Of a DNA stretch of 64,000 bases, positions 5,421 through 54,034 are shown piece by piece. The first letter of the stretch is position 1. Every line of letters starts with the position of its first letter. The notes under the pieces are model-generated. The model searched no databases. It saw only the letters and a program-made list of their open reading frames with translations, and was not told the DNA's origin. A program made the translations under genes and the position numbers. The stretch comes from an uncultured Coriobacteriia bacterium (GTDB lineage: Bacteria; Actinomycetota; Coriobacteriia; Anaerosomatales; PHET01), in NCBI GenBank assembly GCA_942493275.1, contig OW818687.1, forward strand, positions 2,369,918 to 2,433,917, given 5' to 3'.

Positions 5421-6104
5421 CTAGCAGGCTGCGGCGGCTCCTGCCGCTGCAGCGGCGCGGATGCGCTCGATGGCCGCTTTGGGATCCGGCTCGCCGAACA
5501 CGGCGTTGCCGGCAACGAGGACGTTGGCGCCCGCCGCTGCCACGAGCGGGGCGGTCTCAACGTTTATGCCGCCGTCGACCTGGATGAGCGGGTTCACGCC
5601 GAGCTTATCGGCCATCCATGAGATCTCGGCGACCTTCTCGATACTCCGCTCGATGAACGCCTGTCCGCCAAAGCCCGGGTTGACACTCATCACGAGGATC
5701 ATATCGACCATCTCGAGGACCTCGACGAGCGTGTCGACAGACGTGCCCGGGTTCAATGAGACGGCCGGAGAGGCTCCGGCCTCGCGAATACGAGTCAACG
5801 TGCGGTGTATGTGCGGAGATGCCTCTACGTGGACCGTGAGGCTGTCTGCGCCCGCATCCAGGTACCAATCGACGACCGAATCGGCGTTGTCGATCATGAG
5901 ATGCACGTCGAGCGGAATCGTTGCCACCCGCTTGAGGGCCTTCACGACCGGCGGGCCGATGGTGAGATTCGGGACGAAATGCCCGTCCATGACGTCGACG
6001 TGGACGTAGTCGGCGCCGCCCTCTTCGATCATGCGGACCGCGTCTCCCAGCGACGCGAAGTCGGCCGAGAGGATCGAGGGGGCCATCAGAATACGGTCGG
6101 TCAT
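5421..6104 (-). CDS. rpe: Ribulose-phosphate 3-epimerase
   Basis: 227 aa, with APSILSADFASLG...HVDVMDGHFVPNLTIGP...DGGI motifs. Confidence 0.95.
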   Translation of the reverse strand: MTDRILMAPSILSADFASLGDAVRMIEEGGADYVHVDVMDGHFVPNLTIGPPVVKALKRVATIPLDVHLMIDNADSVVDWYLDAGADSLTVHVEASPHIHRTLTRIREAGASPAVSLNPGTSVDTLVEVLEMVDMILVMSVNPGFGGQAFIERSIEKVAEISWMADKLGVNPLIQVDGGINVETAPLVAAAGANVLVAGNAVFGEPDPKAAIERIRAAAAAGAAAAC

Positions 6105-6117
6105 CTCGGTCTCCGGT

Positions 6118-7134
6118 CTAGTCGCTGACGAGCCCCATGCCGTGCAGTTCGTCGCGCGCCTCGCGACCCATGAGGGTGGCTCCGGCGATGCGCGGGTCCA
6201 TTCCTTCGTACAGGACGTGCTTCACCATGTGGGTGATGGGGAGCTCGACGCCTTCGCGCTCGCCCAGCGCAGCCACCGACAGACACGCGACCGCGCCTTC
6301 GGCGACCATGTGCGTCTTGTCGTAGAAGTCCTGCATCGTGCCGCCCTCGGCGACCAACTGGCCGAGGCCGCGGTTGCGCGAGTGGCGACTCGTGCACGTG
6401 ACGATGAGGTCTCCCATGCCGGCAAGTCCCATATAGGTGAGCGGATTGGCGCCGAGCGTCTTGCCCAGCCGGCTCATCTCGGCGAGCCCGCGCGTCATCA
6501 GGGTGGCTTTGGTGTTGTCGCCGTAGCCGAGGCCATCGCACATGCCCGACGCGATCGCGACCACATTCTTGCTCGCGCCGCACAACTCAACACCCACTAC
6601 GTCGGGGTTGGTGTACACGCGAAAGAACGGCGTCATGAACGCGTCCTGGAACAACTCGCCCACCGGCTCGTGATACGCCGCGACGACCGTTGCGGACGGG
6701 ACGCCCTTGCTGACTTCCTCGGCATGGTTGGGACCGGACAGGCCAGCGATTCTGTTTCGGTTGCCGAGAACGTCTTCGAGCACCTCGGTCATGAGGAAGA
6801 GGGTGTCTTGCTCAACGCCCTTGGAGAGGATGACGACCGGAGTGTCCTTGCCGAGCGCCGGCTTCATCGCCTCGGCTGTGGAGCGCACGCCCATGCTCGG
6901 CGTGACCATGACGACCGCCTCGGCGCCCTGAAGCGCTTCCTCGACGTCGGTCGAAGCGAACACGCTCTCGGGCAGGACGACCTCGGGCAGATACATGCAG
7001 TTGCGATGCTCGGCGTTCACGCATTCGGCGATCTCGGCCTCACGCGCCCACAGTCGGACGTCGTGGCCCTTGCCTCCGAGCAGCCACGAGACCGCGGTTC
7101 CCCACGAGCCGGCACCAATGACAGATATGCGCAC
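6118..7134 (-). CDS. gpsA: NAD(P)H-dependent glycerol-3-phosphate dehydrogenase
   Basis: 338 aa. N-terminal ISVIGAGSWGTA Rossmann motif and GpsA-type C-terminal domain; adjacent to plsY. Confidence 0.93.
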   Translation of the reverse strand: MRISVIGAGSWGTAVSWLLGGKGHDVRLWAREAEIAECVNAEHRNCMYLPEVVLPESVFASTDVEEALQGAEAVVMVTPSMGVRSTAEAMKPALGKDTPVVILSKGVEQDTLFLMTEVLEDVLGNRNRIAGLSGPNHAEEVSKGVPSATVVAAYHEPVGELFQDAFMTPFFRVYTNPDVVGVELCGASKNVVAIASGMCDGLGYGDNTKATLMTRGLAEMSRLGKTLGANPLTYMGLAGMGDLIVTCTSRHSRNRGLGQLVAEGGTMQDFYDKTHMVAEGAVACLSVAALGEREGVELPITHMVKHVLYEGMDPRIAGATLMGREARDELHGMGLVSD

Positions 7135-7801: not shown

Positions 7802-9109
7802 CTAGTCCTTCTTCCTGAACTTCAGCATGATCGGCGTGCCCTCGAAGTCGAACCTCTCACGCAAACGGTTCTCGACGTAGCGACGGAAGTTGTCGTCGAT
7901 GAGCGTCGGGTGGTTTGCGAAGAAGGTGAAGCCGGGAGGCGCGACGCGCGTCTGCGTGACGTAGTGCATCTTGAGGGTCTTGCCGTGCTTGTTGACGGTG
8001 TGACCGAAGTCGCGCATCTCGGTGAGGAGCTTGTTGAGCTGGCTCGTGGAGATCTCGCGCATGTAGTTGCCGTAAGCGGTGTCGACCGCGTCCCAGATCC
8101 GGTGGACGCCGCGACCGGTGAGAGCGCTGATACGCAGCACCGGGGCGTAGCCGACGAACATGAGCCGCTCGCCGACACGGTTGAGAAGCCACTCGCGAGC
8201 GTCCTCATCGGTCATCTCGTCCCACTTGTTGAGAAGGATGATCATGGCGCAGCCCCGCTCCTCGGCGAAACGAGCGATGCGCTGGTCCTGGTCGGTGAGG
8301 CCGATGGTCGAGTCGATGACGAGCAGCGCGACGTGCGCGCGGTCGATGGCCCTCATCGCGCGAACGAAGCCGTAGTACTCGACGTCCTCATCGATGAGCG
8401 ACTTGCGGCGGATGCCCGCCGTGTCGACGAGCCGGTACTTCGACTCCCCACGCTCCACGAGGGTGTCGATCGCGTCGCGAGTCGTGCCCGCGATCTCCGA
8501 GACGATCGCACGCTCCTTACCGGCCAGCTGGTTGAGCAGCGATGACTTGCCGGCGTTGGGGCGACCGATGATGGCGACGTCGATGATGCCGGTCTCAACC
8601 TCGGGCTCGACATCCGGAAGCACCTTGACGATCTCGTCGAGGAGGTCGCCCGTGCCATTGCCGTGCGTGGCCGAGACAGGCCACGGGGTGCCGAGTCCAA
8701 GGCCGTAGAAGTCGTACGTCTCGGTCTCCGAGCCGGGGGTGTCCACCTTGTTGACGGCGAGGAAGACCGGTCGGTCGGCGCGCTTGAGGATCTTTGCGAC
8801 CTCCTCGTCGTCGGCGACGAGTCCTGCCTTGCCGTCCACGAGCAGGACGATGGCGTCGGCCTCCTCGGCGGCCATCATGGCCTGCGAACGGATCGACACC
8901 TGGAAGTCATCGGTGGAGCCGGCTTCGATGCCGCCGGTATCGATGAGCAGGAAGTCGACGCCGTTCCAGTCGGCGCGGTGGTAGCTGCGATCGCGCGTGA
9001 CGCCGCGCGCCTCGTGAACGATGGCGTCGGCGACCTGAGTTATGCGGTTGACGAAGGTCGATTTCCCCACGTTGGGGCGACCGACGACTGCGACGATAGG
9101 AAGCGCCAT
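7802..9109 (-). CDS. der: Ribosome-associated GTPase Der (EngA), two tandem GTPase domains plus KH-like domain
   Basis: Two G1 motifs (GRPNVGKST, GRPNAGKSS). The ORF-track start at 9211 would overlap the upstream gene. ATG at 9109 gives MALPIVAVVGRPNVGKS and sits just after the upstream stop at 9117. Confidence 0.93.
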   Translation of the reverse strand: MALPIVAVVGRPNVGKSTFVNRITQVADAIVHEARGVTRDRSYHRADWNGVDFLLIDTGGIEAGSTDDFQVSIRSQAMMAAEEADAIVLLVDGKAGLVADDEEVAKILKRADRPVFLAVNKVDTPGSETETYDFYGLGLGTPWPVSATHGNGTGDLLDEIVKVLPDVEPEVETGIIDVAIIGRPNAGKSSLLNQLAGKERAIVSEIAGTTRDAIDTLVERGESKYRLVDTAGIRRKSLIDEDVEYYGFVRAMRAIDRAHVALLVIDSTIGLTDQDQRIARFAEERGCAMIILLNKWDEMTDEDAREWLLNRVGERLMFVGYAPVLRISALTGRGVHRIWDAVDTAYGNYMREISTSQLNKLLTEMRDFGHTVNKHGKTLKMHYVTQTRVAPPGFTFFANHPTLIDDNFRRYVENRLRERFDFEGTPIMLKFRKKD

Positions 9110-9116
9110 GGGCGCG

Positions 9117-10463
9117 TCACTCCTTAGAGTCGGAAGCGGGGTGATCGACCACGTCGGTGAGGCCGGCCAGCAATCCCGCGGCGTCAGAGGATACCAGACG
9201 CACGTCTGCACCGCTCTTGGCGACCACTTCTTCGAACGTCATGTCGTCGAGGGTGAGACCGTCGTCGTTGAACACGATGTCGGGCACAAGATACGCGCTG
9301 GGGCTGCCGAGACGCTCCTGATCCGCCGCGATCGCCGCAGCGATGTCGGCCCCTACGAGCAGCCCGGTGACGCTCACGTTGCCGCCGAAGAACCGGTTGG
9401 GTACCGCGAGCAGCCTGGCGTACCCGGCGGCGTCGCACGCGTTGAGCGCCCCGGCGAGTGTGGTCGCGGCCATGATGCCGGTGACAACCGTCGCGGTCTC
9501 GCCTTCGACCGGCAGCCGACACACGGTACTCGTAAGGTCCTCTCGGAGGGCCATGGCTTCGTCCACGAAAGTCCGGACGATACCGATGCCGTTCTCGTAC
9601 TGAGGGAAGCCGTCGTACCACTCGGTCGTGGGAAACGGAGCCCGCGCGTTGAGGTAGAACTCGTCGGCGAGGTGTACCCAGGTGATCTCGTCGCGCTCGC
9701 GTGACTCGAACTGCCAGCGCTGGACCTGCTGGATCACCGTGGCAGCGGCGATCTGGTCGCCGAAGCTTTCGCTGATATCGTCCTGATGCTTGGTGTAGCC
9801 GACAGGCACGATGCCGACCGAAGCGATGCCCTCACGCTCGGACAGCCACGCGAGCGTGCGGTCGAGCGCTTCGCCGTCGTTGACGCCGGGAACCAGCACG
9901 ATCTGGACGTGCAGATCGATGCCGGCCTCGACGAGCTGGTCGAAACGCTCGAGCGCGCGGTCCTCCCGCGCACACACGAGCTTGGCCCGGATGTCGGGAT
10001 CGACGCTGTGCAGCGAGACGTAGAGCGGCGAGAGTCGCTGCTCCGCGATGCGCTCTACGTCGGCGTCCCCGAGGTTGGTCAGTGTGACGAAGTTGCCGTT
10101 CAGGAACGACAGCCGGTAGTCGTCGTCGCGAACGTAGAGCGAGGGCCGCATGCCCTTGGGAAGCTGCGCCATGAAGCAGAAGGCGCAGCTGTTGCGACAG
10201 GTGTGCACGCCGTCGAAGAGGATGTCCGAGAAGTCGATGCCCCACGGCTCCCCCGTCTCGCGGTTCAGCTCGACCGTGCAAGAGGCGCCATTGCGCACGA
10301 TTTCGACCGCGACGGTATCCTCGTCGGACTCCCACTGCCAGTCGAGAATGTCGCGGATCTCCCGACCGCCGGCGGAGACGAGCTCATCGCCGGCAAGCAG
10401 GCCGGCTCGCTGGGCGGGCGAACCCGGTTGAACGGCGGCTATCACGCCACGCTTCGCGCTCAT
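9117..10463 (-). CDS. PDZ-domain radical-SAM protein (DUF512 family), function unknown
   Basis: 448 aa. N-terminal PDZ-like segment (VQPGSPAQRAGLLAGDELVS), CxxxCxxC radical-SAM motif (CRNSCAFCF), DUF512-like C-terminus. The position upstream of der is the usual one for this family. Confidence 0.75.
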   Translation of the reverse strand: MSAKRGVIAAVQPGSPAQRAGLLAGDELVSAGGREIRDILDWQWESDEDTVAVEIVRNGASCTVELNRETGEPWGIDFSDILFDGVHTCRNSCAFCFMAQLPKGMRPSLYVRDDDYRLSFLNGNFVTLTNLGDADVERIAEQRLSPLYVSLHSVDPDIRAKLVCAREDRALERFDQLVEAGIDLHVQIVLVPGVNDGEALDRTLAWLSEREGIASVGIVPVGYTKHQDDISESFGDQIAAATVIQQVQRWQFESRERDEITWVHLADEFYLNARAPFPTTEWYDGFPQYENGIGIVRTFVDEAMALREDLTSTVCRLPVEGETATVVTGIMAATTLAGALNACDAAGYARLLAVPNRFFGGNVSVTGLLVGADIAAAIAADQERLGSPSAYLVPDIVFNDDGLTLDDMTFEEVVAKSGADVRLVSSDAAGLLAGLTDVVDHPASDSKE

Positions 10464-45281: not shown

Positions 45282-46775
45282 CTACTGCAGGTCGTTGGCT
45301 CCCGTGTCGACAGGAACCGCGATCGCAAGACGATCCACCGGCACGAGCTGGTACCCGTTGCTGGCGAAGAAGTCCTCCTGATCCATGAGTGAAGACTCTA
45401 GCAACCAGACGCGCTTCCGGGAGGATATTGCCGTGTCCAGATGCTCGAGACCCTCGGCCTTCTTGGATTCGCCGTTGAGGCCATCGAGATCGCATCGATC
45501 GAACAGCTCAGGGCCGTTCGATTCTCCCTTGAGGTAGTGATTCACGAGTACCACGGCGTAGTACTGACCTATCCCGACCTCGCCCGACTGGGCGGATCCC
45601 GCGCACTCCAGCACGGCCGCCTTGTAACTCTCGAGGTCGGCGCTCAGTTGACTAACCTCCCGATAGCTCGACACTCCGGTGAAGACCAGCGCTGCAGCCA
45701 GTACGACCACTGCCGATACTGCCACGGCACGCCTGGTCCGCCATGACGCGATAAGCCACGAGAATCCGACACCGCTGAGCACCGCCAGCATGGAGTAAAA
45801 CGGCATCTGCACCGGGACGTCGCTGTACCTCTCGCCAAGTAGGAACGTCGCGAGCCACAGGAGGAACAGTCCCGCCAAGAAGGGCCAGTACCTTCGCCTG
45901 AGGCCGAGGACGACCACACCCGTCAGCGCGAACGCGAGCGCAAACGAGAACCCGCCGATCTGCTCGGCCTCCTTCGCGAGTGCCGACAGCAGCGTCAGGT
46001 CGGGGGCGATCGCTCCGATATGGCCCGGGCCGTAGAAGTAACCTTCGGTGTGCGGGAGCACGGCGGCCGCCAGCACGGCTCCCGCAACCCCCACCCAGAG
46101 CAGGACGAAGCGTCGAGTAGGCCTCAGGAGCACGAGGAAGGGCACCGCCAAACCCGTGGATGGAGTCACCAGGCACGCAGACGCGAACGCGAGCCCTGCG
46201 AGAACCGGCCTGTCCATCAGAATCAGATAGACGGTCAACAGGAAGAAGCACAGCTGCATCACGTAGAGCTCGGCGTAGACGGCGTTCTCCAGAAACAGGT
46301 ACGTGGTCGCAAGGACCGCGGCGGATCCAATCCCGGCGCTTACCCGCCGCACAAGCAGTTGGGCAATGGCACACACAAGTCCAACGCACGCCGCTGCAAA
46401 CAGCGCACTCATGAGGTTGAGCGCGATGTCCATCGGCAGTGGCACCACGCGAGTGAATGCGATGCCGATGAGGTTGTAGCCCATGTGGTAAGGCTGCTCG
46501 AACGCTCTTCCGCCCGCGATTCGCTCAGCGTAGATGGGCGCATCGCCGAAGTTCAGCGCGTTTGGAACCAGCGACGCGAAGACCGCGAATGCGACCAGCG
46601 CGGACCCTAACGACGTGAGCGTGGCAGTACGGGTGGGCCGTGACGGAAGTGACCCCAGGAACGACTCTCTGGCACGCAGGAACTCATCCCAGAGGACTCG
46701 AGTACCTGAGCGTTTTGACGGTGCGTCTGAGCCAGAAGCAGGCATCCAACTCCCCCGAGATCGCAGCATGCTCAC
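45282..46775 (-). CDS. Polytopic membrane protein, probable GT-C-fold glycosyltransferase (DUF2723/PMT-like) with soluble C-terminal domain
   Basis: 497 aa with at least 10 predicted TM helices, a first-loop FGDAPIYAE motif reminiscent of the GT-C acidic loop, and a ~110-aa hydrophilic C-terminus. The function is inferred only from topology and the adjacent GT2 gene. GC is lower than in core genes. Confidence 0.45.
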   Translation of the reverse strand: MSMLRSRGSWMPASGSDAPSKRSGTRVLWDEFLRARESFLGSLPSRPTRTATLTSLGSALVAFAVFASLVPNALNFGDAPIYAERIAGGRAFEQPYHMGYNLIGIAFTRVVPLPMDIALNLMSALFAAACVGLVCAIAQLLVRRVSAGIGSAAVLATTYLFLENAVYAELYVMQLCFFLLTVYLILMDRPVLAGLAFASACLVTPSTGLAVPFLVLLRPTRRFVLLWVGVAGAVLAAAVLPHTEGYFYGPGHIGAIAPDLTLLSALAKEAEQIGGFSFALAFALTGVVVLGLRRRYWPFLAGLFLLWLATFLLGERYSDVPVQMPFYSMLAVLSGVGFSWLIASWRTRRAVAVSAVVVLAAALVFTGVSSYREVSQLSADLESYKAAVLECAGSAQSGEVGIGQYYAVVLVNHYLKGESNGPELFDRCDLDGLNGESKKAEGLEHLDTAISSRKRVWLLESSLMDQEDFFASNGYQLVPVDRLAIAVPVDTGANDLQ

Positions 46776-46890
46776 TCGGTCACATCAGTGCACCGAGGTC
46801 GTGCCGCTCCCCTCGCGGCGCTAAGCAATCGCAATGTTCACCCAGAGGCGCCGAGTTGTCCAGCGCGGGAGCCCCGGCAGGCTGCAAGCT

Positions 46891-47895
46891 TCACTCGAAG
46901 GCGCGCTGCACGATCAGGGACCTGACGTAGTCGGCGGTCTCTTGAGCACCGGGAGAGCCCATAACGCTCAGGAGCAGGGCCTGAAGAAGTAGCTGGAAGC
47001 CAAGGATCATCGGTACGACGGCAATCATTACCGTGCCTGCAGTCGCCGGTGTGCCCTCAGCGATGGATAGCCACCAGTGGTAGGCACCGAAAGCGACCCC
47101 TGACATCGTCAATAGCACGCCCAATATCGTCAACACGGCAATGGCCCCGAAGTCCGTCAGCAGGTGCTTGCGCCAGAATCGTCTGATTCCGTTGCCTAGA
47201 AGCCGAGGAGGAAAACTCACCGCAACTGAGCCGACACTCACGTAGGACGTCTCACTCCCGTAGCGTGTTGAAACCGGTACATCAACAACACGAGCATTGA
47301 CCGCGTTCAGACGGATCAACATGTCATTCTCGAAGAAGTAGTCCGTCGCAAGTTGGTCCAGATCGAAGAGCCGCAGAAACGGAGCGCGAATGGCCGTGTA
47401 GCCGCACTGCGAATCGAAGACATGCCAATATCCGCTTGCCGACTTCGTCAGCACTGAGAGCAAAGAGTTGCCGAAGCCGCGAACGCGTGGCATGCCCAGC
47501 GTGGCGTTGCGAAAGTAGAATCGATTGCCTTTGGTGTAGTCCGCAATTCCCAACTCAATCGGGGCAACAATCCTCGATAGCTCGTCAGGCGACATCTGGC
47601 CATCGGCGTCCATCTTCACGACACAATCGGCACCCAAATCCAGTGCCATGCGATACCCGCTGACCATGGCCCCGCCGACGCCCCGATTGTGCGGGTGTGT
47701 CACCAGCGCGACACGCTTATCGTCAAGCGATTCGACAACTGAAGCGGTGTCGTCAGTGCTCGCGTCGTTCACGACAATCACATGATCAACCCAGGCAGGT
47801 ATCGCGGCAATAACGCGGCCTATATGCGCGCCTTCATTGAACGCGGGCAGAACGACAGCCGTGGTCAGACTCACTGGCGCCGACGGAGTGTGCAC
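46891..47895 (-). CDS. GT2-family polyprenyl-phosphate glycosyltransferase (GtrB/ArnC/Dpm1-like) with two C-terminal TM helices
   Basis: 334 aa, with VVLPAFNEGAHIG, VVNDASTDDT, NRGVGGA and KMDADGQ (DxD-type) motifs. GTG start with GAGGAG 6 nt upstream. Noticeably AT-richer. Confidence 0.85.
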   Translation of the reverse strand: MHTPSAPVSLTTAVVLPAFNEGAHIGRVIAAIPAWVDHVIVVNDASTDDTASVVESLDDKRVALVTHPHNRGVGGAMVSGYRMALDLGADCVVKMDADGQMSPDELSRIVAPIELGIADYTKGNRFYFRNATLGMPRVRGFGNSLLSVLTKSASGYWHVFDSQCGYTAIRAPFLRLFDLDQLATDYFFENDMLIRLNAVNARVVDVPVSTRYGSETSYVSVGSVAVSFPPRLLGNGIRRFWRKHLLTDFGAIAVLTILGVLLTMSGVAFGAYHWWLSIAEGTPATAGTVMIAVVPMILGFQLLLQALLLSVMGSPGAQETADYVRSLIVQRAFE

Positions 47896-47955
47896 GCCGT
47901 ACTCCTCATGCTCAACGAAAAGATCAGGCCGAGATGGATGGTATCAGAGGGGTCT

Positions 47956-48033
47956 ACCACCCAAAACGCCCCTTCGAGTATCTCCGGAGAGATCCCAAAG
48001 GGGCGTTGATGGTTGATGGTGGGCGATAGTGGA
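47956..48033. repeat. Direct repeat copy A: duplicated tRNA-Val 3' end (17 nt, 1 mismatch) plus duplicated tRNA terminator hairpin (distal att-like junction)
   Basis: Copy A is accacCCaaaacgccccttcgagtatctccggagagaTcccaaaggggcgtt...gatggtgggcgataGtgga. Copy B (50632-50711) is accacTGaaaacgccccttcgagtatctccggagagaCcccaaaggggcgtt...gatggtgggcgataCtgga. Confidence 0.8.
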
Positions 48034-48161
48034 CGGTCTTGTTACCCGTTTCTGGAGAGACGCGGGCTAACGTGTGTGTTGCAGGCGTCTGTGCCCCTAG
48101 CGGGTCGATTCAACCCCTTGGCGCTCTGTTCGATGCCTCTGCTGGATGGCTGTGCGCTTGC

Positions 48162-49397
48162 TCAGCCTGCGAGAAATACCGACGGATTGGCAATTCGGAT
48201 GTAGCTCGACATCCGCGGGTCAGAGAACTGATAGACCCCTTTGGAGCAGCGGTGAAGAATCGCTGAGTAGTCATCTGCGACCAGCTTCTGAAGGTAGTTG
48301 TTGAGCGAGCCTTGCGTAATTGGCGCGCCAGTCAGCTTCTCCACACCGGCACGCAACTCCTCCGCGCGAAACTCGGTCTTGTCCAACATGGCCGCGGCCT
48401 CCAATACGTGACGGTACATGTCCGTCCCATAGGAGCGAACCGCGTGTGCGTATTGCCGGAGCAGAGTGCCCTCCGCATCCTCGACAGCCAGGTTCATCGC
48501 CGACTCGAGGCACTTACGATCCACGATGGTCAGGTCGTTTGCTACGGCCTCCTCCGCGCACTTAAGTGCGAGCAGATGGGTGAAGTGTGGGTAGCCGGAG
48601 CTCAGTTTGACAATCTCTTTGGTGACTGTGGCATCGAAATCAAGTCCGACTTTCTCAGCCCCCTCCACGACGATCAGTTCTAGCTCATCCGCATTCATGC
48701 GGGGCAGACGCGTCTCCTTCAGACAGCGTTGGACGGACTCGTGGCCGCCGGTGAGCTCCTCTGCCGTCTGCGCGATGCCCACAACGAGGACCTTGAAGTT
48801 CGAACCGTTGTCGCTAAGAAGCTTGATCAGTTCCGCCAAGTTGCCCTTGTCCCCAGCCGTGGCAATCCGATCCGCTTCGTCGATGTACAGCAAGCCCTCG
48901 CGGTCTTTCAAAGCATCGGCCACGACTGACGGGGAAAATTGCTGCACGGAGTAGGTCTTCTCTGTCGCCCGCTCGCTGCCAATCTCTGCAGCGGCCACGG
49001 GGATCATGAGTCCGCCCTTACCGTGCTCTTTGTGCACCGTCTTCTTCGAAGTGAGGTCGACTTCAATCCCGAAATCGGCGAGCACCGGCGCGAGTACGGT
49101 CTCAAAAGTGTCGCTGGAGTCGCACCGCTTGGTGTACAGCTTGCCACTAATGACCTGCTTGATAAGAAGTTCGGTTGCGACATTTGCCAATGAGCTCTTC
49201 CCCACGCCGCGTTCTCCGTACAGGAGGGCATGCTGACCAGGCGTGTTGATCTGCTCAAGTATCTTGCCGACCTCCTTCTGGCGACCGAAGAAGAGTTCGA
49301 CCGCCTGTACCGGTCTATGGGGCGTGAAGACCTCTCGGACGCCGGACTTTCGGATCTTGGTCTCGCGCGCAATTCCAAACAGGTCAGGCTTGCCCAC
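48162..49397 (-). CDS. AAA+ ATPase (ORC/Cdc6-like or archaeal-ATPase-like) with C-terminal winged-helix-like domain
   Basis: 411 aa. FFGRQKEVGKILEQI...ALLYGERGVGKSSLAN (Walker A), LLYIDEADR (Walker B), and a C-terminal ...LQKLVADDYSAILHRCSKGVYQFSDPRMSSYIRI. GTG start preceded by GGAGGAG. Confidence 0.7.
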   Translation of the reverse strand: MGKPDLFGIARETKIRKSGVREVFTPHRPVQAVELFFGRQKEVGKILEQINTPGQHALLYGERGVGKSSLANVATELLIKQVISGKLYTKRCDSSDTFETVLAPVLADFGIEVDLTSKKTVHKEHGKGGLMIPVAAAEIGSERATEKTYSVQQFSPSVVADALKDREGLLYIDEADRIATAGDKGNLAELIKLLSDNGSNFKVLVVGIAQTAEELTGGHESVQRCLKETRLPRMNADELELIVVEGAEKVGLDFDATVTKEIVKLSSGYPHFTHLLALKCAEEAVANDLTIVDRKCLESAMNLAVEDAEGTLLRQYAHAVRSYGTDMYRHVLEAAAMLDKTEFRAEELRAGVEKLTGAPITQGSLNNYLQKLVADDYSAILHRCSKGVYQFSDPRMSSYIRIANPSVFLAG

Positions 49398-49500
49398 ATC
49401 TCCTCCTATGTCCGTCTAAAGTCGGCGCGCTTAGCTGCGCGAAGTGCCTGACGCTCCTGCACGTCAGGTTTAAGCGCTTGCCAGGCATCGCCTTTGAGTC

Positions 49501-49920
49501 CTAGCCGGCAATATCAAGCGAATCCGGCTGAGATTCATCCAAGTCCATACCGTCATCCGCAGGCATTCGCGCCTTGATTCGCGCGACCACCGACCGAGTC
49601 GATTCCCACGACTTCCACCAGAGCACGAGTAGCACCACGCCCGCGACAGAGGAGACGAGTGTGGCCAGCACGAAGACGTCGAACGTCCGGTTGTCGGAAA
49701 TCGTTGTCGTCTTCAACGCAATCAGAAGAGCAAGCGCCATCGAGAGGAAGAAGATGGCGAAGTTCAAGAAGAGGCTGCCGTTGCCGCCTGTGGTTAGGTC
49801 GTTCAGCTCAGACTCAGTGACTTCGTACAGAGACAGCGAATCAACACGCGCGCGACGCACGCGAACCTCACCCACACCACTGTCATTCGGATTCGTCATC
49901 AGAGATTCTTCTTCAGCCAC
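49501..49920 (-). CDS. Small membrane protein with two TM helices (hypothetical)
   Basis: 139 aa. A ~45-aa N-terminal soluble part, two hydrophobic helices (LFLNFAIFFLSMALALLIAL; VFVLATLVSSVAGVVLLVLWW) and an acidic C-terminal tail. Its start overlaps the upstream 88-aa gene by 22 nt. Confidence 0.6.
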   Translation of the reverse strand: MAEEESLMTNPNDSGVGEVRVRRARVDSLSLYEVTESELNDLTTGGNGSLFLNFAIFFLSMALALLIALKTTTISDNRTFDVFVLATLVSSVAGVVLLVLWWKSWESTRSVVARIKARMPADDGMDLDESQPDSLDIAG

Positions 49921-50165
49921 TCATTCGAACACATGACATTTCGCCACGCTGCAGCGGTACCGGACTTGACCACGAAGAGGCGGCTCCCTTCAGGGAGGAA
50001 CCGCTCGAGGTTGTCGCGTATCGACTTCTGGCCGTCTGCGGACACGATCGCCCACGTGGATTCGGTGACATGCGCCCAAGTGCCATAGGCTTTGATGGCC
50101 GTGAACAGGTCCTCGTAGTCTCCGCCGTCTGCCATGTCGTACGAAATGATGTAGCAGTCCTTCAT
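49899..50165 (-). CDS. Small soluble protein, predicted beta-alpha-beta-beta-alpha-beta (ferredoxin-like, Cas2/VapD-reminiscent) fold; hypothetical
   Basis: 88 aa: MKDCYIISYDMADGGDYEDLFTAIKAYGTWAHVTESTWAIVSADGQKSIRDNLERFLPEGSRLFVVKSG. The alternation of hydrophobic strands and amphipathic helices is read by eye. ATG preceded by GAGAGGAG; a TAATAT box and a GAGACaGTCTC palindrome lie upstream. Confidence 0.55.
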   Translation of the reverse strand: MKDCYIISYDMADGGDYEDLFTAIKAYGTWAHVTESTWAIVSADGQKSIRDNLERFLPEGSRLFVVKSGTAAAWRNVMCSNEWLKKNL

Positions 50166-50631
50166 TGGCGCTCGGAGCTCCTCTCGTGAGACTGTCTCAA
50201 TATTAGCGCAGGAACCCGAAGCCGACTCCCATGCGTATGCCCAACGTCTCTGCGCGGAGCCTGCGGCGTAGACGCCCGTCAGGAGGATTCTACCTTCTGG
50301 CCGTCAGGTTGACGCCAGTACCAGGCCTCGCGCGGCAGTTCCAGTGTCGATCCGTCCGGTCGATTGCTCGTTAACCGCAGACCGCCGTACACGGCCACGG
50401 CAAACAACCAGTGGCACGCGACCGTGAACTCCGATGCCGCGACCCACAGATCGTACTGCTCCAGTGAGCAGGAAACGCAGCGAGCTCGACCCGGTACAGC
50501 AGGTCAGAGATGCAGCGCTCACCTCGTCCCGCGCCCGGATCGCGTTCCAAGAAGCCGCCGATCACGACAAGCGAGAGGTCGTCCAGACCGTACTTTGGAA
50601 CCGGGGTGTGAAGGACGGCGACCTAAGCCCC

Positions 50632-50711
50632 CACCACTGAAAACGCCCCTTCGAGTATCTCCGGAGAGACCCCAAAGGGGCGTTCTGTTACAGATGGTGG
50701 GCGATACTGGA
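50632..50711. repeat. Direct repeat copy B: genuine tRNA-Val 3' end plus its terminator (proximal att-like junction)
   Basis: See copy A. It overlaps tRNA positions 59-75 (50695-50711) and the hairpin at 50641-50683. Confidence 0.8.
50637..50683 (-). terminator. Rho-independent terminator of tRNA-Val
   Basis: The reverse strand reads AACGCCCCTTtggggtctctccggagatactcgAAGGGGCGTTTTC: a 10-bp stem, an inner TCTCCGGAGA palindrome, and a trailing T-run. Confidence 0.75.
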
Positions 50712-50769
50712 TTTGAACCAGTGACTTCCACCGTGTGAAGGTGGCACTCTCCCGCTGAGTTAATCGCCC
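50695..50769 (-). tRNA. tRNA-Val (anticodon CAC), CCA encoded
   Basis: Hand-folded 75-nt cloverleaf. Acceptor GGGCGAT/ATCGCCC, D stem ACTC/GAGT, anticodon stem CCACC/GGTGG with loop TTCACAC, T stem ACTGG/CCAGT with loop TTCAAAT, discriminator A, 3' CCA. Confidence 0.95.
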
Positions 50770-50799
50770 GTACGCCGCCATGAGCGGCAAGTGGATAGT

Positions 50800-51777
50800 T
50801 TAGTGGTACCCGTCCGGGTGGGCAAGGTGCCATCGCCACGCATCTGCGACTATCTCGGCCAGCTCCCCATGTTCCGGGCTCCATCCGAGGACCTCTCCCG
50901 CTCGTACCGCCGATGCGACGAGTCTCGCGGGATCACCGGCACGGCGAGGCCCGATGTCGATCGCGACCTGTCGGCTGGTAACCTCGGCGCACGCCTGCAC
51001 GACCTCTCGATTGCTGAAGCCCTGCCCGTTCCCGAGGTTGAACACCCCGCCCTCGAATCCGTCGTTCAGACGCTCGAGCGCGATTCGGTGTGCTCGCGCG
51101 AGGTCCACCACGTGCACGTAGTCGCGCAAGCACGTGCCGTCCGGCGTCGCGTAGTCGCCCCCAAAGACCTCGAACGACGACTCGCCGTCACGCATCCGCT
51201 GCAGCACCCTCGGAATCAGATGAGTCTCGGGATCGTGCGCCTCACCGAGAGACCCGTCGGGCCACGCGCCAGCGACGTTGAAGTAGCGGAATCGGACGGA
51301 TCTCACGCCGCGCTCACGAAACTCGTCCAGCCGGCGCTCGAAGGCGAGCTTGCTCTCCCCGTAGGCGTTCACCGGCCGAGTGGGAGCCTCCTCGGTGATG
51401 GGCACCGACTCAGGCTCGCCGTAGACCGCTGCGGTAGACGAGAACACGATCGCCGTCACCCCGTGCTCGATCATCGCCTCCAGCAGGACGACGGGTTCCT
51501 CGGCGTTGTTTCGGATGTACTTCTGGGGGTCGGCCTGTGATTCGGCGACCTCGATGTAGCCGGCGAGATGCATGACAGCGTCACACCCCGGCAGGCACTC
51601 TTCGAGAACGCTTCTGTCCCCCACCGAGCCGACGACCAGGTCAGCGCGAGGGTCCACGGCAGCCTCCCAGCCGCGTTCCAGAGTGTCGAGGACGACGCAC
51701 TGGTGCCCCGCATCGAGCAGCGATCGGGTTGTGATCGAACCGATGTAGCCGGCCCCGCCGGTGACGAGAATCCTCAT
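50800..51777 (-). CDS. galE: UDP-glucose 4-epimerase
   Basis: 325 aa from ATG 51777 (MRILVTGGAGYIGS). Extended SDR with the YGESK catalytic motif. The track start 52044 overlaps the upstream gene. Confidence 0.9.
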   Translation of the reverse strand: MRILVTGGAGYIGSITTRSLLDAGHQCVVLDTLERGWEAAVDPRADLVVGSVGDRSVLEECLPGCDAVMHLAGYIEVAESQADPQKYIRNNAEEPVVLLEAMIEHGVTAIVFSSTAAVYGEPESVPITEEAPTRPVNAYGESKLAFERRLDEFRERGVRSVRFRYFNVAGAWPDGSLGEAHDPETHLIPRVLQRMRDGESSFEVFGGDYATPDGTCLRDYVHVVDLARAHRIALERLNDGFEGGVFNLGNGQGFSNREVVQACAEVTSRQVAIDIGPRRAGDPARLVASAVRAGEVLGWSPEHGELAEIVADAWRWHLAHPDGYH

Positions 51778-51815: not shown

Positions 51816-52904
51816 TCAGCGGAGAGGCACGATGCCGCGTCGAAGCGCTCGGCAGACCCTGGACGACACCGCTGAGTCCCATCGGCGCGGCGAGAGCCAC
51901 GTGCCGTGTTCGCCTAGCGCCGAGGCTATCGCGTCGCGGATGGGAGCTGGAGACGCGGCGACCATCCGATTCGCGCCGGCCTCCGTCGTCGCGGTGTGCT
52001 CGGTGCACTCTCGCACCGTCAGACACGGCGTCCCAATGACGCACGCCTCCTCCTGAAGCCCGCCGGAGTCAGTGACGACGACGGCGGCGTCACGGACCAG
52101 AGCGAGCATGTCTCGGTAGGGAACCGCCTCGACCACGTCGACCCCGGGTCCAACCGAGATGCCGTGGGCCTCGACCGCTCGAGTCAAACCCTGTGTGTCG
52201 GGGACCAACGACGGCAACTCAGTCATGGCCAGCCCATCCAGGATGCCCTTGAGCCTCTCGGCGCTGGACAGGTTCTCGGGCCGGTGAAAGGACGCGAGGA
52301 TGTACCGGCGTGGCGTGAGCCCTCTCGCAGAGACGGCTTCGTGACCGATGGAATCGATGCTGCGCAAGACGGACTCGGCCAGCATGTTTCCCACGAAGTG
52401 GATTCGTTCGGGATCTATGCCCTCATCCTGAAGGTTCTCTAGCGCGATCTCGGTCGGAGACAGGTGCATCGACGCAACACGCGAGATGAGCACCCGGTTC
52501 ACTTCTTCGGGAATCCCCAGGTCTCCGCAGCGCAGACCCGCCTCGAGATGCACGACCGGGATGCCTGACTTGACCGCCGAGATGGCCGCCGCAAGTGAGG
52601 TGGTGACGTCACCGACGACCATGATGGCGTCAGGCTTCTCGGTGGCAAAGAGCTGCTCGAACGCGACCATGGCCTTGCCCGCGAGCGAGGCGTCTGTGCC
52701 GCTGCCGACGTCAAGGCACCATCGGGGTTCCGGCAGTTCGACCCCGTAGAAGGAGACGGCACCCTTTCGATCCTCGGGATGGTATGCCTCTCGGGATCCC
52801 GAGAACACGATTTCGGCCTGAACACCCGATGCGACGAGAACCGGAATGAGCGGCCCAACCTTGACCACGTTCGGCCTGGCTCCGACCACCACCATCAGTC
52901 GCAC
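51816..52904 (-). CDS. wecB: UDP-N-acetylglucosamine 2-epimerase (non-hydrolysing), paralog 1
   Basis: 362 aa, with VGARPNVVKVGPL, VVGDVTTSLAAA, HLEAGLR and FHRPEN motifs. Confidence 0.88.
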   Translation of the reverse strand: MRLMVVVGARPNVVKVGPLIPVLVASGVQAEIVFSGSREAYHPEDRKGAVSFYGVELPEPRWCLDVGSGTDASLAGKAMVAFEQLFATEKPDAIMVVGDVTTSLAAAISAVKSGIPVVHLEAGLRCGDLGIPEEVNRVLISRVASMHLSPTEIALENLQDEGIDPERIHFVGNMLAESVLRSIDSIGHEAVSARGLTPRRYILASFHRPENLSSAERLKGILDGLAMTELPSLVPDTQGLTRAVEAHGISVGPGVDVVEAVPYRDMLALVRDAAVVVTDSGGLQEEACVIGTPCLTVRECTEHTATTEAGANRMVAASPAPIRDAIASALGEHGTWLSPRRWDSAVSSRVCRALRRGIVPLR

Positions 52905-52951
52905 CGAATACCTCCTCGCGCAGTTGCGTCACAAGGGTTGTACCCGAGTGT

Positions 52952-54034
52952 CTACTCGGCGAGCGGCACGATCCCGGACTGCAGCGCCGTCACGACCCTC
53001 TCGGCGACTCGGTCGTCCCACCGGTCTGGATGCTCCCAATCGCGGCCCGAAGCGAGCCCAGCCGCCACGCCTTCGAGGATCTCGGCAGACGATGCTGAGA
53101 CGAGACGGTTCGACCCGATCTCGACGGTTACCTGACGCTCGGTGTTGCGCCGAACGGTGACACAGGGAGTCCCCAACATGCAGGTCTCCTCCTGCACGCC
53201 GCCCGAATCGGTGACGACGATGGCGGCGTCACGCTGGAGCGCGAGCATGTCCAGATAGCCGACAGGGTCCACCAGCTGAACGGACGAGCCCTCAGACAGG
53301 CCGGCCTCGGCGAGCTTGGGCCGGGTGCGCGGATGGACCGGGAAGATCGCCGGCATTCCGATGCCCTTGAGTCCAGATGCGATCTCCTCAAGACGATCAG
53401 GATGATCGGTATTCTCGGGCCGATGGATGGTCACAAGCGCGTACTGACCGGGAGTCTGGCCGTAACGACCGCATACCTCGCGATCGCGAATGCGCTCCAC
53501 ATTGCGGAGCACGGACTCGGCCATGATGTTGCCGACGAAGTGGATGCGCGAGCGATCGACGGCCTCGGCGACGAGGTTCGCCTCCGCAGCCTCGTTGGGC
53601 GTCAGCAGCATCGACGAGAGCTGGTCGGTCACGAGGCGGTTGATCTCCTCGGGCATGGACATGTCGCCCGAGCGAAGTCCCGCCTCGAGGTGCACGACCG
53701 GTATCCCGATCTTGGACGCCGCCAGCGCGCCGGCCAGGGTCGAATTGACGTCGCCTACCACCAGCAGCGCATCCGGCCTCTCGGCGACCAGGAGCTCCTC
53801 GAGTGCCATCATCGCCCGGCCCGTCTGTACGGCGTGCGTTCCCGAACCGATGCCGAGGAACCACGCGGGCTCCGGCAGCTCCAGATCGGCGAAGAACACG
53901 TCCGACATCGACGCGTCGTAATGCTGACCCGTGTGCGCGATGCTCGCGTCAATGCCGGCGGCAGCGAGTGCGGGCATGAGCGGACCGACCTTGATGAAGT
54001 TGGGGCGAGCTCCGACGACGACGATCAGACGCAT
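52952..54034 (-). CDS. wecB: UDP-N-acetylglucosamine 2-epimerase (non-hydrolysing), paralog 2
   Basis: 360 aa, collinear with paralog 1 (VGARPNFIKVGPL, VVGDVNSTLAGA, HLEAGLR, IHRPEN). The two are clearly diverged rather than recent copies. Confidence 0.88.
   Translation of the reverse strand: MRLIVVVGARPNFIKVGPLMPALAAAGIDASIAHTGQHYDASMSDVFFADLELPEPAWFLGIGSGTHAVQTGRAMMALEELLVAERPDALLVVGDVNSTLAGALAASKIGIPVVHLEAGLRSGDMSMPEEINRLVTDQLSSMLLTPNEAAEANLVAEAVDRSRIHFVGNIMAESVLRNVERIRDREVCGRYGQTPGQYALVTIHRPENTDHPDRLEEIASGLKGIGMPAIFPVHPRTRPKLAEAGLSEGSSVQLVDPVGYLDMLALQRDAAIVVTDSGGVQEETCMLGTPCVTVRRNTERQVTVEIGSNRLVSASSAEILEGVAAGLASGRDWEHPDRWDDRVAERVVTALQSGIVPLAE

Follow-up and report, generated by a model that had tools for sequence, protein, structure and literature searches.

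A 64-kb stretch of the 2.52-Mb genome of an uncultured Coriobacteriia bacterium (GenBank assembly GCA_942493275.1, contig OW818687.1, positions 2,369,918 to 2,433,917; the whole stretch is referred to here as the window) contains, next to its tRNA-Val(CAC) gene, a small island that was initially described as bounded by direct repeats and devoid of any recombinase. Results of our analysis indicate that the 2.7-kb segment between about 48017 and 50711 is very probably what remains of a small integrative element of the large serine recombinase (LSR) family, which inserted at the 3' end of this tRNA gene and whose recombinase gene was later destroyed. While the preliminary description was right that no intact recombinase is present, tblastn revealed an LSR pseudogene at the tRNA-proximal end of the island. 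The comparison with related loci also supports the earlier proposal that the direct repeats are the left and right attachment sites (attL and attR) of a site-specific integration at the tRNA 3' end. The coordinates of all features are collected in Table 1.

Recombinase Remnant and Its Relatives

The searches of the window with homologous recombinases (P0126-P0133) matched the pseudogene with E values of 1e-10 to 1e-18 and 36-49% identity. The remnant represents only the C-terminal ~90 residues that follow the coiled coil; the catalytic Resolvase domain as well as the Recombinase and Zn ribbon domains are not there. When read past the in-frame stop codon, the sequence continues as KRPFEYLRRDPKGAFCYRWWAILDLNQ. 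Intact homologues have the Resolvase, Recombinase, and Zn_ribbon_recom domains (the architecture is complete in P0128-P0133 and in the LSR of locus L053), and their sequences match the structures of the TP901-1 and A118 serine integrases in the Protein Data Bank (PDB). No LSR similarity was found by tblastn elsewhere in the 64-kb window beyond this remnant and a tail fragment at the far end of the island, and upstream of position 50446 neither tblastn nor tblastx (the latter against ~60 tRNA-Val and LSR loci) gave a match to LSR elements. The spacer between the remnant and the enclosed genes presumably holds the scar of the deletion as well as the cargo promoter region. Judging from its sequence, the island appears to be LSR-derived but not a functional member of the LSR elements, and since it contains no intact integrase, it may be called decayed; it is probably immobile.

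In intact relatives, the C-terminus of the LSR is encoded by a GC-rich hairpin, a linker, and the antisense strand of the tRNA 3' end. Seven homologous proteins share a tail motif (YQLKRPFEYLRRDPKGAF), and five of them end with WWAILDLNQ directly before the stop codon, which corresponds to antisense tRNA-Val. The exceptions are P0128, with a variant ending, and P0131, which runs into tRNA-Val(GAC).

The key comparison was based on species-representative genomes scanned with the tRNA sequence, which yielded 38 loci from several phyla; the identical 71-nt tRNA-Val sequence is present in 38 such genomes of at least five phyla. A near-identical hairpin follows tRNA-Val in three metagenome-assembled genomes (MAGs) of Coriobacteriia (L022, L041, and L042), and a related one in a MAG of Actinomycetes (L019). 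The GalE gene is located directly upstream of the tRNA in L022, L042, and L019, as in the window, with GalE proteins of L022 and L042 being, respectively, 72% and 68% identical to that of the window. An LSR converges on tRNA-Val in L041 and L042 (GalE-tRNA-Val synteny); in L041, it is a 275-aa open reading frame (ORF) that runs off the contig start and ends with SIASYQLKHPFEVLRRDLKGAFCNEWWAILDLNQ followed by the stop codon. Decayed LSR remnants comparable to that of the window are located beside the same tRNA in L022 and L019. Among these MAGs, none of which is a close relative, tRNA-Val sites are found in virgin (L018 and L046), occupied (L041 and L042), and remnant (L022 and L019) states.

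A scan of metagenomes with the LSR alignment provided 80 further loci (L050-L129), 58 of which extend at least 200 nt beyond the LSR gene. A convergent tRNA gene is located at the LSR 3' end in 43 of these 58 (tRNAs for Ser, Val, Gln, Ala, Asn, Leu, Phe, Met, Arg, and Asp). The distant members of the clade keep the peptide YQLKxPF and have lost the GC-rich hairpin. Complete elements, each with its two ends on a single contig, are represented by L053 (~4 kb, with an intact LSR gene at 8554-10005, tRNA-Val(GAC), and a far copy at 5978-6071), L057 (~3.7 kb), and L058 (7.3 kb, at tRNA-Phe, with a 30-nt repeat of the tRNA sequence only).

A gene for a 339-343-aa protein is located directly upstream of the LSR gene in L053 (7514-8545), L049 (3465-4484), and L048 (2782-3810). 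The similarity of this protein to rolling-circle Rep proteins is weak and below the threshold (Phage_CRI, E 5e-4; Rep_trans, E 2.5e-3), and hints that the elements may replicate after excision. In L048 (3823-6608), the LSR gene is split by an insertion of the IS3 family (rve and HTH_Tnp_1 domains) between a 99-aa Resolvase fragment and a 438-aa remainder, which would represent another route of LSR inactivation.

Direct Repeats, Core, and Element Arm

Both ARAGORN and Rfam confirmed the tRNA-Val(CAC) gene on the minus strand, and the Rfam scan returned nothing beyond the tRNA. The two-part direct repeat of ~80 bp with a variable linker that had been noticed at first reading was recovered by a repeat search of the window as a 52-nt block (47956-48007 vs. 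50633-50684, 94% identity) and a 19-nt block (48015-48033 vs. 50693-50711, 95% identity). The linkers between the hairpin and the tRNA-end motif are 7-8 nt long and unrelated in the two copies. The whole unit occurs in the window only twice (50632-50711 and 47956-48033). The 17-nt tRNA-end motif (far copy at 48017-48033) is present in two copies in 64 kb vs. 0.02 expected, and the 43-nt hairpin in two copies vs. 0.00 expected from shuffles, which argues against a terminator family dispersed within the window. A third copy of the repeat, which could have bounded an older element including the neighboring GT2 glycosyltransferase gene, was sought in the window and was not found.

The far 17-nt sequence had been taken for the 3' end of the tRNA. 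Instead, it consists of an 8-bp core, TGGTGGGC, and the first 9 nt of a tRNA-like arm that belongs to the element. The core is the sole sequence common to all proximal and distal junctions (L019, L053, L057, L139, L054, L063, L027, and L026). The arm follows it also in L063 (CATCGTGGACGGTCTTGGAACC), in L139, at two junctions of L019, at the distal junctions of L053 and L057, and in L027 and L026; its consensus is CATCGTGGACGGTCTTGGAACC, and it is conserved in at least nine independent elements. The far copy of the window, in which TGGTGGGC is followed by GATAGTGGACGGTCTTGTTACC, is identical to the L063 arm in 13 of 13 positions over GTGGACGGTCTTG. A second shared motif, CTAACG, is located ~40 nt further into the element, and P0127 reads WWAITDGLVT where the far copy of the window reads WWAIVDGLVT. 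The LSR tail, core, and arm are found in one piece, resembling an attachment site of the free element (attP), in L139, L054, and L063; in L027, at least the LSR 3' end is arranged likewise.

At the virgin sites of L018 and L046, two MAGs of the same group as L019, tRNA-Val is followed by a short native hairpin, and LSR sequence is absent. In L019, the far junction is composed of a native short terminator, such as those of L018 and L046, followed by TGGTGGGC and the element arm, and the two junctions of this locus share TGGTGGGC only. Because of this composition of the far junction, we infer that the crossover takes place within or at the core and that a single integration into a virgin site would duplicate the 8-bp core only. 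Serine recombinases need little sequence identity, and an element-borne tRNA-proximal hairpin combined with a duplication limited to the core fits a recombinase of this family. As for the exact crossover dinucleotide, candidates to the right of the core are inconsistent with GATAG in the window.

Distal Junction and Serial Integration

At the far end of the island, the core is preceded by a fragment of the LSR 3' tail. Its tblastn matches have E values of 0.001-0.009 on their own and 1.4e-5 when combined for P0127 (match at 47937-48005). In L053 and L057, analogous older tails, 75-95 nt in length and with a different hairpin variant, are present at the distal junctions, and the far hairpin differs from the near one (it is L051-like in L053 and window-like in L057). 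The far tail of the window may have been left by a previous element of this family, or may be a tRNA terminator that derives from such a tail and was displaced by a later integration. Since only the core is duplicated when a virgin site is used, as in L019, the far hairpin would predate the present element, and the difference between far and near variants in L053 and L057 suggests that far hairpins are tails of earlier elements. We therefore slightly favor serial integration, in which a hairpin would have been located downstream of the tRNA already when the present element arrived.

Some loci show more complex arrangements. In L019, two far junctions are located 450 nt apart (464-508 and 990-1040), one consisting of tail, core, and arm and the other of native hairpin, core, and arm; their order is opposite to that predicted by simple tandem accretion. 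In L026 (~5800-6900) and L027 (~5480-6600), a segment of ~0.9 kb with no recombinase inside is located beside tRNA-Val. Its boundary toward the tRNA is formed by a short GC hairpin and TGGTGGGC, and that on the far side by a hairpin or LSR tail, TGGTGGGC, and the arm. Such segments may be mini non-autonomous elements.

Hairpin

The RNA of the proximal hairpin in the tRNA-sense strand has a predicted folding energy of -46.1 kcal/mol (z = -7.1), with UUUU directly 3' to it, and due to G·U pairs the hairpin is more stable on this strand. Neither copy was called by a consensus terminator scan, the stem and loop being beyond the limits of that scan. The hairpin is 100% identical between the window and L042, while the adjacent GalE proteins are only 68% identical. 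In the alignment of 24 family tails, 93.6% of cells pair, and compensatory double changes are present in 7 of 15 pairs. The observed covariation was reached by none of 500 shuffles, and in slid controls pairing drops to 35-58%. This pattern indicates that the hairpin is selected as a structure and not solely as a peptide. As the peptide that it encodes is conserved among LSRs of various hosts and next to various tRNAs, the hairpin appears to be of element origin. The most economical explanation of its function would be that of a terminator for the convergent transcripts of the tRNA and LSR genes, brought by the element because integration cuts the tRNA off from its original terminator. The hairpin may also have a part in recombinase binding.

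Table 1. Features of the tRNA-Val(CAC) island (positions in the window).
Feature	Position	Strand	Description
tRNA-Val(CAC)	50695-50769	minus	ARAGORN; Rfam tRNA, 67.1 bits; intact, CCA encoded; integration target (attB side, tRNA-proximal junction)
Core TGGTGGGC, proximal copy	50695-50702		tRNA positions 69-76 (GCCCACCA); inferred crossover region
Core TGGTGGGC, distal copy	48017-48024
Element-borne attachment arm ('P arm') GATAGTGGACGGTCTTGTTACC	48025-48046		Same arm after the core in other elements
LSR pseudogene remnant	50446-50721	plus	Last ~88-94 codons; in-frame TGA at 50638-50640; N-terminal ~370 codons gone
LSR 3' tail fragment DGIRGVYHPKRPFEYLRRDPKGA… and 9-nt linker	47937-48016	plus	tblastn; last ~23 LSR residues (DG…Y..KRPFEYLRRDPKGA)
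Proximal 43-nt imperfect palindrome	50642-50684		Minus strand, terminator-like after the tRNA; plus strand, encodes KRPFEYLRRDPKGAF, the recombinase C-terminus
Distal 43-nt hairpin copy	47965-48007		Repeat search; one C/T difference from the proximal copy; fold -40.1 kcal/mol, z = -6.5
Spacer	50166-50445		No recognizable gene; GC 0.627; ORFs without Pfam, PHROG, PADLOC, or NCBIfam match
88-aa protein, Cas2/GhoS-like ferredoxin fold	49899-50165	minus	phrog_1090, E 1.8e-18; first gene of a two-gene module
Two-transmembrane (two-TM) membrane protein, ~133-139 aa	49501-49920	minus	Partner of the 88-aa gene
nSTAND1/AAA P-loop ATPase, 411 aa	48162-49397	minus	Pfam nSTAND1, E 1.5e-13; phrog_6841, E 3.5e-71

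Proposed History of the Island and Alternative Explanations

The history that we propose is as follows. In intact members of the family, the LSR gene occupies the tRNA-abutting end of the element and converges with the tRNA gene, its last ~25 codons being formed by the GC-rich palindromic hairpin, a short linker, and the tRNA 3' end read in antisense. When the element is free or in tandem, the LSR tail is followed by the 8-bp core and then by the conserved arm of ~22-45 nt. A crossover within or at the core would join the LSR tail with its hairpin to the tRNA, leaving the tRNA intact and providing it with a new hairpin and U-run, and would at the same time place the arm at the opposite, far end. 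Later, in the genome studied here, the LSR gene would have acquired the in-frame stop codon and lost its ~370 N-terminal codons together with any other core genes, so that three cargo genes and both junctions were left behind. The second hairpin, at the far junction, would derive from a previous member of the family, whose tail was already located behind the tRNA on the arrival of the present element. Of the three options offered by the preliminary description, a decayed island is thus the one that we favor; an unusual duplication is rejected on the basis of the LSR pseudogene and the conserved arm, and a satellite mobilized in trans is retained among the alternatives.

One such alternative is that a single integration took place through ~80 nt of identity, the 43-nt hairpin being already the resident terminator and attP sharing the whole segment with the attachment site of the host (attB). 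The three closest relatives, L022, L041, and L042, carry the hairpin directly after tRNA-Val, the distal tails of the window, L053, and L057 are alike in length (75-95 nt), and the repeat of L058 consists of tRNA sequence only, all of which would agree with this explanation. However, in every one of these three relatives an LSR or its remnant adjoins the hairpin. The conservation of the hairpin peptide across LSRs of different hosts and tRNAs, the unrelated linkers in the two window copies, the distal hairpin variant of L053 and L057 that differs from the proximal one, and the duplication of only the core by the virgin-site insertion in L019 also make a single integration unlikely. The second alternative accepts the loss of the recombinase but assumes that the junctions are functional and that an LSR of the same clade, located elsewhere or incoming, still mobilizes the island, which would then be a satellite or a cis-mobilizable element. 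Both junctions are well kept (core and arm at 48017-48046; tail, hairpin, and core at 50642-50702), the two hairpins differ by 1 nt although their linkers differ completely, and a precedent is provided by the Dehalococcoides ssrA islands without integration modules, for which co-mobilization with their neighbors was proposed (PMC3146451). Nevertheless, the window contains no other LSR homologue, and the terminator function explains the conservation of the hairpin (identical in L042, with GalE at 68%) equally well. Hence, we consider continued mobility quite improbable.

Explanations that dispense with a serine recombinase fare much worse. The absence of an intact mobility gene and a GC shift wider than the interval could be reconciled with the view that the tRNA 3' end and its terminator were duplicated locally and that unrelated genes were inserted between the copies by illegitimate or homologous recombination. 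This view is highly implausible given that an LSR pseudogene is located exactly at the tRNA-proximal end, that the far copy runs on into an arm conserved in at least nine independent elements, and that the same architecture occurs with intact LSRs in L053 and L057. A classical tRNA island of a tyrosine integrase, the gene of which was lost, would produce the textbook signature of a tRNA 3'-end target with direct repeats, and decayed integrase-less examples of such islands (P4, pSAM2, and Islander-type) are common. Yet, library scans of the region 47900-50800 detected no tyrosine recombinase similarity in any frame, and the expected position of the integrase gene holds LSR-derived sequence, which leaves this possibility hardly conceivable.

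Several observations weigh against the history of an LSR element followed by serial integration. All of the tested proteins that are present in the collections are singleton clusters at 90% identity, and exact-sequence searches with the ATPase, GT2, and P0001 matched no contig; no close relative of this genome, and hence no sister strain with a true empty site, was found there. The position of the crossover was derived solely from the comparison of junctions, and in the far copy of the window the core is directly followed by G, as in the tRNA, where nine other arms have C. The lengths of the older tails (window, L053, and L057) all fall within ~75-95 nt, a regularity that is not expected from random deletion; the long repeat could therefore belong to the mechanism rather than be a leftover. 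Loci L026 and L027 and the second junction of L019 do not fit simple tandem accretion. None of the cargo genes was found in the ~90 LSR loci examined, so that cargo and element are linked by position only. Finally, the GC shift does not coincide with the repeats, as the trough extends to the left over the GT2 gene outside them.

A tentative reading that goes further is that of a distinct tRNA-targeting clade in which the 3' coding end of the LSR gene is the attachment site, a portable hairpin of conserved structure takes the place of the tRNA terminator, and the 75-95-nt tail retained once the element is lost serves as a domesticated terminator and a preferred landing pad for later elements. 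It would account for the recurring long repeats in the window, L053, and L057.

Comparison with Known Systems

Among described systems, the nearest analogue of the island in architecture is provided by the ssrA islands of Dehalococcoides. Those islands carry a CcrB-like LSR (DsiB) at the tmRNA-proximal end and repeat 20 bp of the RNA 3' end (PMC3146451); they occur in tandem or as remnants, some without an integration module, and their cargo is variable (PMC3146451, McMurdie et al. 2011). Common to both systems are a serine integrase at the end beside a stable-RNA gene, insertion into the 3' part of this gene, and a far repeat of the RNA 3' end. In contrast to the ssrA islands, the target here is a tRNA (tRNA-Val, and other tRNAs in the clade) and not the tmRNA, and the repeat of the window, which includes an LSR tail and hairpin, is ~80 nt and not 20 bp. 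Neither the window nor L053 encodes a DsiA-like small serine recombinase or a ParB or RecF module, and nothing resembling the six-gene integration module of the ssrA islands (DsiB, DsiA, RecF-like, ParB-like, Mom-like, and so on) is present in the window. The sole conserved neighbor of the LSR in L053 and L049 is the weakly Rep-like protein of 339-343 aa.

With the large serine integrases of phages and of integrative and conjugative elements (A118, TP901-1, phiC31, and Bxb1; CcrAB of SCCmec), the clade shares the domain architecture, a short inferred core, and the location of attP beside the integrase gene. Elements mobilized by serine recombinases usually insert within protein genes and produce very short repeats (PMC5704250, a review of integrative mobilizable elements), whereas members of this clade target tRNA 3' ends and restore the tRNA. 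Moreover, the stop codon of their LSR genes is located inside the antisense tRNA, so that the extreme C-terminus is rebuilt at each integration. As in classical tyrosine integrase islands, the target is a tRNA 3' end that receives a replacement, the integrase gene abuts the tRNA, and there is a direct repeat at the far end; the differences concern the family of the recombinase and the crossover identity of ~8 bp, the rest of the repeat being of other origin.

Apart from its integrase, which is of a less common type, this is an ordinary genomic island. The clade of tRNA-targeting LSRs is sizeable and apparently little described, and large databases of genomic islands probably hold such cases. 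Our results explain the presence of a small foreign insert in a polysaccharide synthesis cluster, with probable defense or addiction genes now fixed in place, and indicate that an island that seems to have no recombinase can be assigned to a mobility family on the basis of a 90-codon pseudogene and a 22-nt arm. Serine integrases with attB in a tRNA gene would suit genome engineering, as tRNA sequences are conserved across phyla. If the landing-pad reading were true, the clade, in which 10 or more tRNA isoacceptor families are targeted, could be a source of natural serine integrases with universally conserved attB sites.

Cargo Genes

The three enclosed genes noticed in the preliminary description are real, and all are located on the minus strand. 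The ATPase, a candidate defense gene product, has hundreds of homologues of 50-73% identity in unrelated phyla, and gives a weak match to the PADLOC candidate system PDC-S59 (E 2.6e-5). Genes in the neighborhood of homologues of 54-73% identity from several phyla encode GmrSD, Mrr, and an AAA_15/21 protein in L001, and BREX and an HNH protein in L006. The family is that of a stand-alone gene recurring in defense islands and has no solved relative; a sequence search of the PDB with the ATPase gave nothing useful.

The 88-aa protein has 174 homologues of 56-79% identity across phyla, some of which are named Cas2 in their sources, and weak matches to Cas2 in PADLOC (E 2e-3). Its AlphaFold2 model (pLDDT 83.6) was matched by Foldseek to Cas2 (8d3l_E; E 2.9e-4, TM-score 0.63) and to GhoS (2llz; E 1.1e-3). 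The true start of the gene encoding the two-TM protein is likely the ATG at 49899, in overlap with the stop codon of the preceding gene; the 139-aa form of this protein was not found in the protein collection. In L140-L143, a homologue of the 88-aa protein is followed by a protein of 132-135 aa that is 44-54% identical to the two-TM protein. The two genes make up a coupled module, with 44-79% identity over many phyla, that is independent of the ATPase (49501-50165 in the window, 5001-5667 in L140, and 146-821 in L143). The GhoS/GhoT pair resembles this module in that a protein of Cas2/GhoS-like fold, here of 88 aa, is followed in the operon by a small protein with two transmembrane segments; it differs in that there is no sequence similarity and in the size of the membrane partner (~133 aa vs. 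57 aa). As a lead from the predicted fold, the pair could represent a GhoS/GhoT-like type V toxin-antitoxin system. A single system comprising all three genes was considered and rejected, as the neighbors of the ATPase homologues differ and the pair occurs without the ATPase.

On the basis of gene neighborhood and fold, the cargo most likely acts in phage defense or as an addiction module, and its absence from the LSR loci examined indicates that it is variable. A scan of viral contigs for the hairpin and a search for relatives of the 88-aa protein were both negative. In a distant blastn comparison of the island with phages, the tRNA was the sole match.

Base Composition and Neighboring Genes

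The GC content of the region 48034-50631 is 0.590, vs. a window mean of 0.651 (standard deviation of 0.022 in 2.6-kb windows), which places it in the lowest 3%. The earlier estimate of 50-55% was too low. The drop itself is real in the windowed profile, but it is not confined to the island, and the GT2 gene outside is equally GC-poor. The latter (46891-47895, minus strand) lies in the most GC-poor stretch of the window (~46200-48600), with a GC content of 0.581 and a third codon position GC content of 0.675, which suggests its separate horizontal origin within the polysaccharide cluster. This cluster is interrupted by the tRNA gene and the island. Upstream of the GalE gene, at 51816-54034 on the minus strand, it is of note that two tandem paralogous genes encode UDP-GlcNAc 2-epimerase-like proteins of 362 and 360 aa.

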